A stretch of 64,000 nt of DNA from Escherichia phage ECO111 5-P. The DNA is taken from sequence record OR844765. The stretch is one strand, 5' to 3'. The translations under genes were made by a program, and so were the position numbers. The notes beneath the pieces are model-generated. The model did no database searches, was not told where the DNA came from, and was given only the letters and a program-made list of their open reading frames with translations. How positions within the stretch are numbered: position 1 is the stretch's first letter; each line of letters opens with the position of its first letter. Below are positions 20,992 to 21,255 of the stretch, in pieces.

Positions 20992-21255
20992 GTTAAATCG
21001 AGGAGCCGTCGAACTGTCTGATTAATGATTTGCGAATCATTATAGTTTTAAGACCCCGACAGTTTTACGGTGTACCTCTTGAATGTATTTTGTACTATCA
21101 CGCGTCAGAAAGAGGTTATCTGTCTAAGTCGTGGTTGGTATGATGACGAGGTTTATGGTTATCCTGTCGTTAAATATCCAAAACCTATGTTCCCCTTGAG
21201 GGCTTGCGCAGGCAATGCCAATAAGTCCTGCATTTTCATTTAAAGAGAATTTATA

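Follow-up and report, generated by a model that had tools for sequence, protein, structure and literature searches.

Structured RNA modules between rIII and gene 30.9 of T4-like phages, including an undescribed pseudoknot

The 264-nt gap between rIII and gene 30.9 of a T4-like phage is non-coding and, with little room for doubt, an array of structured RNA modules. The structures of two of these, designated modules D and A, are supported by covariation, and module A is an undescribed pseudoknot, representing an RNA family missing from Rfam. The gap is ultra-conserved, its modules are shuffled between phages, module A occurs alone in tRNA arrays, and a pseudo-ToxI unit is found in the gaps of sister phages. 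The explanation that we consider the best overall, and which we weigh about equally for and against, is that the gap is a co-transcribed array of four plus-strand RNA modules (D, F, A and C), and neither a coding region nor a DNA site.

The window, i.e., the whole stretch of 64,000 nt that was analysed (sequence record OR844765), derives from a Mosigvirus-type T4-like phage and is 98-99% identical to vB_EcoM-pEB20, G2285 and moha. It has the T4 gene order cd, 31.1, 31, rIII, 30.9, 30.8 on the plus strand. The 264-nt gap reported after rIII by the initial annotation, at 20992-21255, is real, since rIII ends with its TAA codon at 20991 and 30.9 starts at 21256. The product of 30.9 is 96% identical to T4 gp30.9, and T4 has an equivalent gap of 244 nt between 30.9 and rIII, in which the reference record annotates no feature. 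The features of the locus are listed below.

20743-20991, plus strand: rIII, lysis inhibition accessory protein, 82 aa (PHROG 1457, E 3.8e-43; annotated rIII in relatives), stop codon TAA at 20989-20991
20997-21086, plus strand: module D, long bulged hairpin (RNAalifold on 15 variants, 25 pairs)
21000-21003 with 21075-21078, 21005-21009 with 21067-21071, and 21011-21018 with 21058-21065, plus strand: helices of module D
21023-21030 with 21035-21042, plus strand: apical hairpin of module D
21087-21140, plus strand: module F, optional hairpin cassette proposed from comparison, with its internal GTCAG...CTGTCTAAG core kept
21141-21190, plus strand: module A, H-type pseudoknot with covariation in both helices
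21145-21151 with 21163-21168, plus strand: stem S1 of module A, GACGAGG/CCTGTC, with a bulged G
21157-21160 with 21182-21185, plus strand: stem S2 of module A, GGTT/AACC
21169-21181, plus strand: loop 3 of module A, conserved and A-rich, GTTAAATATCCAA
21192-21255, plus strand: module C, putative 30.9 leader, two proposed hairpins and a weak third
21192-21194 with 21200-21202, plus strand: proposed C1 hairpin, CCC-CTTGA-GGG, with the tail CTTGCG
21208-21212 with 21227-21231, plus strand: proposed C2 hairpin with a conserved 14-nt loop, CAATGCCAATAAGT
21233-21237 with 21245-21249, plus strand: putative weak hairpin over the 30.9 Shine-Dalgarno region
21256-21435, plus strand: gene 30.9 homologue, basic protein of 59 aa (PHROG 1427, E 2.4e-31, unknown function)
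21440-21462, plus strand: stem-loop GGGAGACTTCGGTCTCCC followed by a T-run, read from the sequence as the likely terminator of the rIII-gap-30.9 transcript

A sequence scan detected no sigma-70-like promoter and no terminator-like site within 20992-21255, in line with the initial annotation, in which no promoter could be assigned there by eye. The octamer TATAAATA at 20621-20628, located just past the gp31 stop and upstream of rIII, is the T4 late-promoter consensus. Such a site would fit transcription across the gap at both late and early times. Expression of rIII from early, middle and late promoters has been described (PMC9409239), and our search of the literature found no transcript data for the gap. 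The stem-loop at 21440-21462 was missed by the simple promoter/terminator scan; at the equivalent site, a putative terminator is annotated in G2285 and G53. PeSL cassettes are composed of a terminator stem-loop and an early promoter, TTTACW N17 TAYWAT (PMC2839356, PMC4122927), and the region at 21438-21535, in which the stem-loop and its T-run are followed by GTTTACT-N17-TACTAT, fits this published pattern. This PeSL-like unit is probably where the rIII-30.9 transcript stops and the 30.8 unit begins.

The initial annotation put an upper limit of about 20 codons on any open reading frame (ORF) of the gap, for both strands. We found that this holds for ATG starts on the plus strand and fails elsewhere: the plus strand carries frames of 57 aa from GTG (21070-21243) and 37 aa from TTG (21030-21143), and the minus strand carries frames of 26 aa from ATG (21159-21239) and 77 aa from TTG (21124-21357, overlapping 30.9). 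A small protein, for example the product of the 57-aa GTG frame, would thus have frames of 37-57 aa with GTG or TTG starts at its disposal, and G2285, G53 and further GenBank records list gap ORFs as hypothetical proteins. However, 1-nt indels in the gap shift any frame among relatives that are 98-99% identical, the longest ORF switches frame or strand between near-identical relatives, the ORF products have no Pfam or PHROG match, and the substitutions track base-pairing and not codon positions. We regard a protein encoded in the gap as extremely improbable. Four records (OL362041, MZ170040, OR539218 and OR539221) label the gap '1,4-alpha-glucan (glycogen) branching enzyme, GH-13-type', which is evidently an annotation artefact over non-coding RNA.

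The initial annotation had proposed folding and covariation analysis across related phages, an Rfam scan and a search for tRNAs as checks on a structured RNA. Covariation was strong in module A, present in module D and limited in modules F and C, and the structured RNA is borne out on the plus strand by the compensatory changes and strand-specific G-U pairs of modules D and A. Folding energies were no better than those of shuffled sequence (z-scores -1.9 to +0.6). The covariance models of Rfam 15, with Pistol, preQ1, Y RNA-like and tRNA-like families included, gave no match in the gap even at E<=10, and none at E<=1 in eight related loci, except for two chance-level matches elsewhere. ARAGORN found no tRNA or tmRNA in the gap.

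The perfect inverted repeat noticed at the outset, TAATGATT-TGCG-AATCATTA at 21023-21042, is present as described and forms the tip of module D. In the 15 variants of this module, compensatory changes were seen in 5 of the 25 pairs. Several G-U pairs, which do not vary, would be C-A mismatches on the other strand, so that the structure applies to the plus strand only. The sole variant of the palindrome, TATCGATT-TACG-AATCGGTA, still pairs, with U-A changed to C-G and A-U changed to U-G, and the latter change would give an A-C mismatch on the opposite strand. Module D is identical in T4 and truncated in L023; its support is real but moderate, because sequence diversity is low. The palindrome taken alone is unremarkable, because such hairpins are common here (31 perfect 8-bp hairpins with loops of 3-8 nt in the window, as compared with 11.4 +/- 3.3 in shuffles), and it gains significance only from conservation and covariation.

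These data also bear on the possibility that the gap is a DNA-level element, i.e., a protein-binding palindrome, as the initial annotation had suggested, a replication origin or a PeSL promoter-terminator cassette. The perfect 8-bp palindrome would suit such an element, and PeSL cassettes are common in T4-type genomes (PMC4122927). However, the G-U pairs and the U-G covariation are valid on one strand only, and palindromes of 8 bp abound in the window. We also rejected the gap itself as a PeSL, as 20992-21255 has no promoter-like site or hexamer pair and the pattern fits only the region after 30.9. A DNA-level element is therefore very unlikely, and a palindrome for DNA-binding proteins is not favoured, the palindrome being the tip of a larger RNA hairpin whose variant keeps RNA pairing.

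Module A consists of two interleaved helices, each with covariation, i.e., an H-type pseudoknot. Among 28 T4-like variants, 82.6% of cells were paired, as compared with 32-50% when the partners were slid; the covariation score was 0.41, as compared with at most 0.12, and double changes occurred in 8 of the 13 pairs. When nine copies from unrelated phages were included, 87.1% of cells were paired (at most 48% in the slid controls) and the covariation score rose to 0.51 (at most 0.17), a value reached by none of 500 shuffles. Four pairs with double changes were found in each helix. Stem S2 lengthens to 7-9 bp in relatives, and the junctions are conserved. A covariance model of module A gave a single match in the 64-kb window, at 21136-21196 with 74 bits.

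The preQ1 and SAM-II riboswitches are also compact H-type pseudoknots in which loop 3 is A-rich, and module A has a by-eye likeness to the P1/pseudoknot and linker of the pistol ribozyme (RF02679), the 5' half of which has a similar hairpin, a loop pseudoknot and a UUAAAUA linker. We considered whether module A may be a ligand-sensing riboswitch or a small self-cleaving ribozyme, and rejected both ideas, because no covariance model of Pistol, preQ1 or another Rfam family matches and the 3' context is inconsistent: neither a counterpart of pistol P2/P3 nor a G-U cleavage site consistently follows module A. In addition, module A often lies far from ribosome-binding sites, or between tRNAs. Either identity seems to us highly improbable.

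Module F is a 51-nt block missing in T4. Its outer stem is wholly different in sequence between clades yet pairs in each, with double changes in three pairs, giving modest support to the hairpin. In JS98-type phages its place is taken by the 135-nt module B. This structured RNA, of about 135 nt, was observed in the same gap of Klebsiella, Enterobacter, Citrobacter, Erwinia and JS98-type phages (403 phage records; e.g., L010, about 1255-1390, and L043, JS98), and is missing from the window. RNAalifold on only seven sequences of module B gave 37 pairs, 18 of them with compensatory changes; the element is unannotated and not in Rfam.

Module C covers the GC-richer stretch CCCCTTGAGGGCTTGCGCAGGCAATGCC, which had been noted earlier and lies at 21192-21219. 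Nearly all relatives have the C1 motif, in some cases at the 5' end of the gap, and the C2 loop is retained on entirely different stems (CAGG/CCTG and AACTGG/CCAGTT). Both hairpins were drawn solely from this comparison, because single-sequence folding in the window does not recover them, and the structure of module C, as read from the sequences, may be put forward with modest confidence.

The gap is 99.1% identical to that of T4 (210 of 212 aligned bases), as compared with 87.1% for rIII, 89.2% for gp31, 92.1% for 30.9 and 61-77% for the neighbouring spacers. Apart from the 51-nt block, for which T4 has no counterpart, several 1-nt indels distinguish the two gaps. This near-identity could partly reflect recent recombination and not selection. 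The gap sequence was matched in 775 phage records, in one place each. About 65 T4-like loci were collected by way of their rIII and 30.9 proteins, and the spacer between the two genes was taken from every locus. In nearly all enterobacterial T4-like phages the spacer is 120-420 nt long, and at 40 or more T4-like loci modules A-H occur in varied combinations and orders, each in a single copy per genome. Examples of module order are as follows.

This window: D-F-A-C
T4: E-D-A-C
G53: E-D-F-A-C
JS98-type phages: D-B-A-C
L010: G-A-E-B-C
L025: C1-A-H
L070: B-G-A-C

The distant relatives L071 and L072 have no spacer between rIII and 30.9. In these phages (about 1425-1600) a shorter 30.9 homologue, MSARKGYKRKTNKRIN..., begins about 10 nt past the rIII stop. 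Since 30.9 directly follows rIII there, the two genes were paired before the RNA modules came to lie between them.

The mosaic distribution, with gain and loss at fixed junctions, together with the transfer of module A between unrelated phages described below, would also be expected of selfish or neutral mobile cassettes spread by recombination without benefit to the phage, and modular shuffling is typical of T4-type genomes (PMC2839356, PMC4122927). However, the modules are single-copy in each genome, the gap is conserved above the level of the neighbouring genes, and compensatory substitutions keep the two interleaved helices of module A in many lineages, which requires selection on the RNA fold. 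We therefore consider cassettes of no use to the phage improbable.

Pattern scans of viral and metagenome collections located module A in T4-like rIII loci and in about ten other contexts. One of these is L102, a 55-kb contig of an unrelated phage with 12 tRNAs, where the 58-nt spacer separating tRNA-Asp from tRNA-Pro is filled exactly by module A; over 41 nt, this copy shares 92.7% identity with that of the T4-like L025/L026. At least eight further metagenomic contigs carry module A between tRNAs or in promoter-to-terminator units free of genes. It lies between two tRNAs in L129 and inside a unit of the latter kind in L130; in L133, L142 and L149 module A is preceded, in this order, by a promoter and a second structured RNA bearing a C1-like motif, and tRNAs come after it; L137 carries module A plus a ToxI-like unit (E 0.008). 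The copies in unrelated phages were scored by the module A model with E values from 1e-9 to 1e-4.

Several observations were made alongside these. In uncultured phages (L130, about 1400-1800, minus strand; L133 and L149, upstream of module A), promoter-to-terminator units hold structured RNAs only, namely an RNA X, then module A, then an RNA Y or tRNAs; the RNA upstream of module A in one uncultured phage (the L130/L133/L149 set) has the C1-like motif GTGCCTTAGGGCTTACGGAAGC. The tRNA cluster of a cultured T4-like phage, Aeromonas phage 44RR2.8t, also includes a degenerate A-like element (L153, 1493-1546; 33 bits), positioned between tRNA-Pro and ORF119c, in which loop 3 is shortened.

Since module A is found without 30.9 in unrelated phages, it is an independent, horizontally transferred small-RNA gene and not a cis element of 30.9. 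The initial annotation had offered a structured leader for the basic ORF as one reading of the gap; this can be retained for the last ~65 nt (module C, 21192-21255) and not for the rest. In a broader form of this idea, the whole gap would be a cis-acting untranslated region (UTR), i.e., an mRNA-stabilising 3' UTR of rIII plus a 30.9 leader or RNase processing marks, with no function in trans. In its favour, the gap lies between co-oriented genes without an internal promoter or terminator, modules A and C always precede 30.9 in gap-bearing T4-like phages, the last hairpin overlaps the Shine-Dalgarno region, and module D holds a GGAG motif, as recognised by the T4 RegB nuclease. However, tRNA arrays and gene-free promoter-to-terminator units contain module A with neither rIII nor 30.9, the order and content of the modules vary freely, with C1 at either end of the gap, module F is dispensed with in T4, and L071 and L072 manage without a gap. 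Moreover, plain stabilising hairpins need neither invariant loops nor a pseudoknot. We consider a purely cis-acting UTR unlikely, and prefer the array of RNA modules.

Bacterial counterparts of the modules were sought in several ways. The whole gap was searched by blastn against E. coli genomes and against plasmids, and nothing there corresponded to module D, F, A or C; when a module-rich relative was compared with plasmids, only the ToxI-like unit, missing from the window, had one. This unit, module E (~32 nt, AGGTGATTCGCTACCTTAAGTGCGGCTAGAAAAT), is present in G53, L034, L057 and most Mosigvirus records and is deleted in the window. Many T4-like phages have one such unit, and the copies located are as follows.

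L003 (G53) 893-930, L034, and L057 1509-1546: pseudo-ToxI unit, directly after the rIII stop
L004 (T4) 4747-4783, minus strand: diverged copy of the unit, directly after the rIII stop
Window, about 20994/20995: pseudo-ToxI unit absent, from alignment with relatives

The L010 version of module E matched 66 small enterobacterial plasmids, pECA1039 included, in 3-10 places each. In the E. coli plasmid pNMEC-O75B it corresponds to a 36-nt repeat, AGGTGATTTGCTACCTTTAAGTGCAGCTAGAAATTC, which occurs 5.6 times directly upstream of a gene matching Pfam ToxN_toxin (E 3e-37), and the Mosigvirus form of the unit matches the plasmid ToxI repeat at 30 of 32 aligned positions (93.8%, one gap). Module E is therefore a single pseudo-ToxI unit, mimicking a type III antitoxin, as it matches the ToxI repeat upstream of ToxN. 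The tandem repetition of ToxI is not a feature of the phage modules, which are single-copy, as compared with 5.6 repeats in bacterial ToxI. A ToxI covariance model built without T4-type sequences (core GGTGA..TGC TACC..AAGT GCA..) recovered the units of L057 (45 bits) and L074, as well as the ToxI-like unit of the unrelated contig L137. It gave no match in the gap, and its best match in the window lay elsewhere (E 4.3). The T4 unit scored 15.6 bits (E about 1), which is not significant alone; from its low score at the same position we regard it as a diverged unit, homologous by position. No near match to the T4 unit was found in E. coli genomes, and no mention of such a unit was found in the literature consulted on TifA and on the escape of T4-family phages from ToxIN.

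Module A was likewise compared with bacterial repeats. A scan of 185,579 genomes with the module A loop motif revealed no tandem A-like array adjoining a toxin gene, and viral and metagenome scans revealed no tandem A-like unit with a neighbouring toxin ORF. The tandem-repeat scan of the 185,579 genomes yielded 24 loci, in Firmicutes, Bacteroidetes and others, which we treated as unrelated to module A, because they lack a downstream toxin ORF and the A model recognises none of them. The tandem intergenic repeats of the bacterial loci L077, L079, L080, L084, L085 and L092 (37-63 nt; Clostridia, Cohnella and others) have a hairpin followed by CGTWAAAY....RAAAC, do not lie beside toxin genes and likewise escape the A model; they are probably unrelated families caught by the search pattern. 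In the K. pneumoniae plasmid NZ_CP056218 (cited in PMC12283969) no TenpN could be identified. The Yersinia plasmid p_153kb (150/153 kb), a reported tenpIN carrier, showed no A-like match, no labelled TenpN and no suitable tandem repeat; its toxin gene was not located, which makes the comparison a weak one.

How the modules might work can be outlined from these comparisons. Transcripts starting upstream of rIII would cross the gap and 30.9 as far as the stem-loop at 21440-21462, and the modules would fold independently. At least pseudoknot A would then be released, or would act as a discrete small RNA in trans. Since other phages carry module A among tRNA genes, it probably acts as a free RNA, a view toward which we lean somewhat. 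By analogy with the type III antitoxin pseudoknots, which bind toxins, module A may bind a protein via its conserved loops, and would most likely serve to inhibit a host defence that targets RNA, or to act as its decoy. Module C alone may in addition serve as a 5' leader of 30.9, partly covering the ribosome-binding site. Processing of the transcript, action in trans and a role against host defence are thus what we infer.

Phage tRNA arrays are now understood as counter-defence loci. Counter-defence is our best single guess at the role of the modules, because a ToxI mimic occupies the same slot in relatives, the modules are shuffled like accessory elements, and module A accompanies tRNA arrays. 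The reading is one of association, because the window is without the pseudo-ToxI unit, and a decoy function of module A or of the modules is in our view possible while falling short of probable. Taken further, T4-type phages, T4 included, may keep an 'RNA anti-defence island' after rIII, made of shuffled structured RNAs that would each act, as decoy or inhibitor, on a different RNA-targeting immune protein of the host; the pseudo-ToxI unit would be its sole recognisable member, and module A a new widespread class of phage small RNA, expressed elsewhere from tRNA arrays. We offer this wider proposal tentatively, as rather unlikely to hold in full.

An ultra-conserved stretch of ~250 nt has thus stood unannotated in the reference record of T4, the best-studied phage, and it includes a pseudoknot common to unrelated phages by horizontal transfer, which sits among their tRNA genes. 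If the other modules act like pseudo-ToxI, this would be the first multi-RNA counter-defence locus and, if so, would open a direct way to study host defences whose neutralisation depends on RNA and not on protein. Even with a different function, the locus would provide several new structured RNA families, testable by deletion in a tractable phage.

A description of the locus was not found in the literature on T4 small RNAs, on pseudo-ToxI in T4 or on structured RNAs in tRNA clusters. The closest known systems are the following. T4 rnaC and rnaD (species 1 and 2) are non-coding RNAs of unknown function among tRNA genes, and elsewhere module A is likewise. Unlike rnaC and rnaD, module A of T4-like enterobacterial phages lies after rIII and not in the tRNA cluster; the module A model had no match in the T4 tRNA region, and rnaC and rnaD, tried as relatives, have no sequence similarity to any module. 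PeSL cassettes are comparable in being short non-coding cassettes tied to modular shuffling in T4-type genomes, whereas the gap is without a promoter-like site and its modules have conserved loops and a pseudoknot. The Pistol ribozyme (RF02679) resembles module A in that a hairpin loop pairs with a downstream segment, which is followed by a UUAAAUA-like linker; unlike in Pistol, P2/P3 and the cleavage dinucleotide are missing, the sequence after module A varies, and no Rfam match was obtained at E<=10.

The pseudo-ToxI of the Pectobacterium phage phiTE is a non-coding phage pseudoknot that resembles a bacterial RNA antitoxin and is expressed in infection; its partial repeat had to expand before it protected the phage (PMC3475682). 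The window has no such unit, and modules D, F, A and C have no sequence match to ToxI or a bacterial repeat; in contrast to the expanded repeats of phiTE, the units in T4-like gaps are single copies. As in phiTE, however, the sister phages G53, L034 and L057 hold a single ToxI-like unit, and do so in this very gap. The type III antitoxins TenpI and CptI, about 40-57 nt long, fold into pseudoknots and have an A-rich stretch (PMC3401426, PMC12283969); they are usually found as about two repeats upstream of TenpN or CptN, whereas module A is never in tandem and never beside a toxin gene. In verbal description, on which this comparison with TenpI is based, module A is nevertheless similar: its length is ~50 nt, stem 1 is conserved, stem 2 covaries, and a conserved run of adenosines is placed to contact stem 1.
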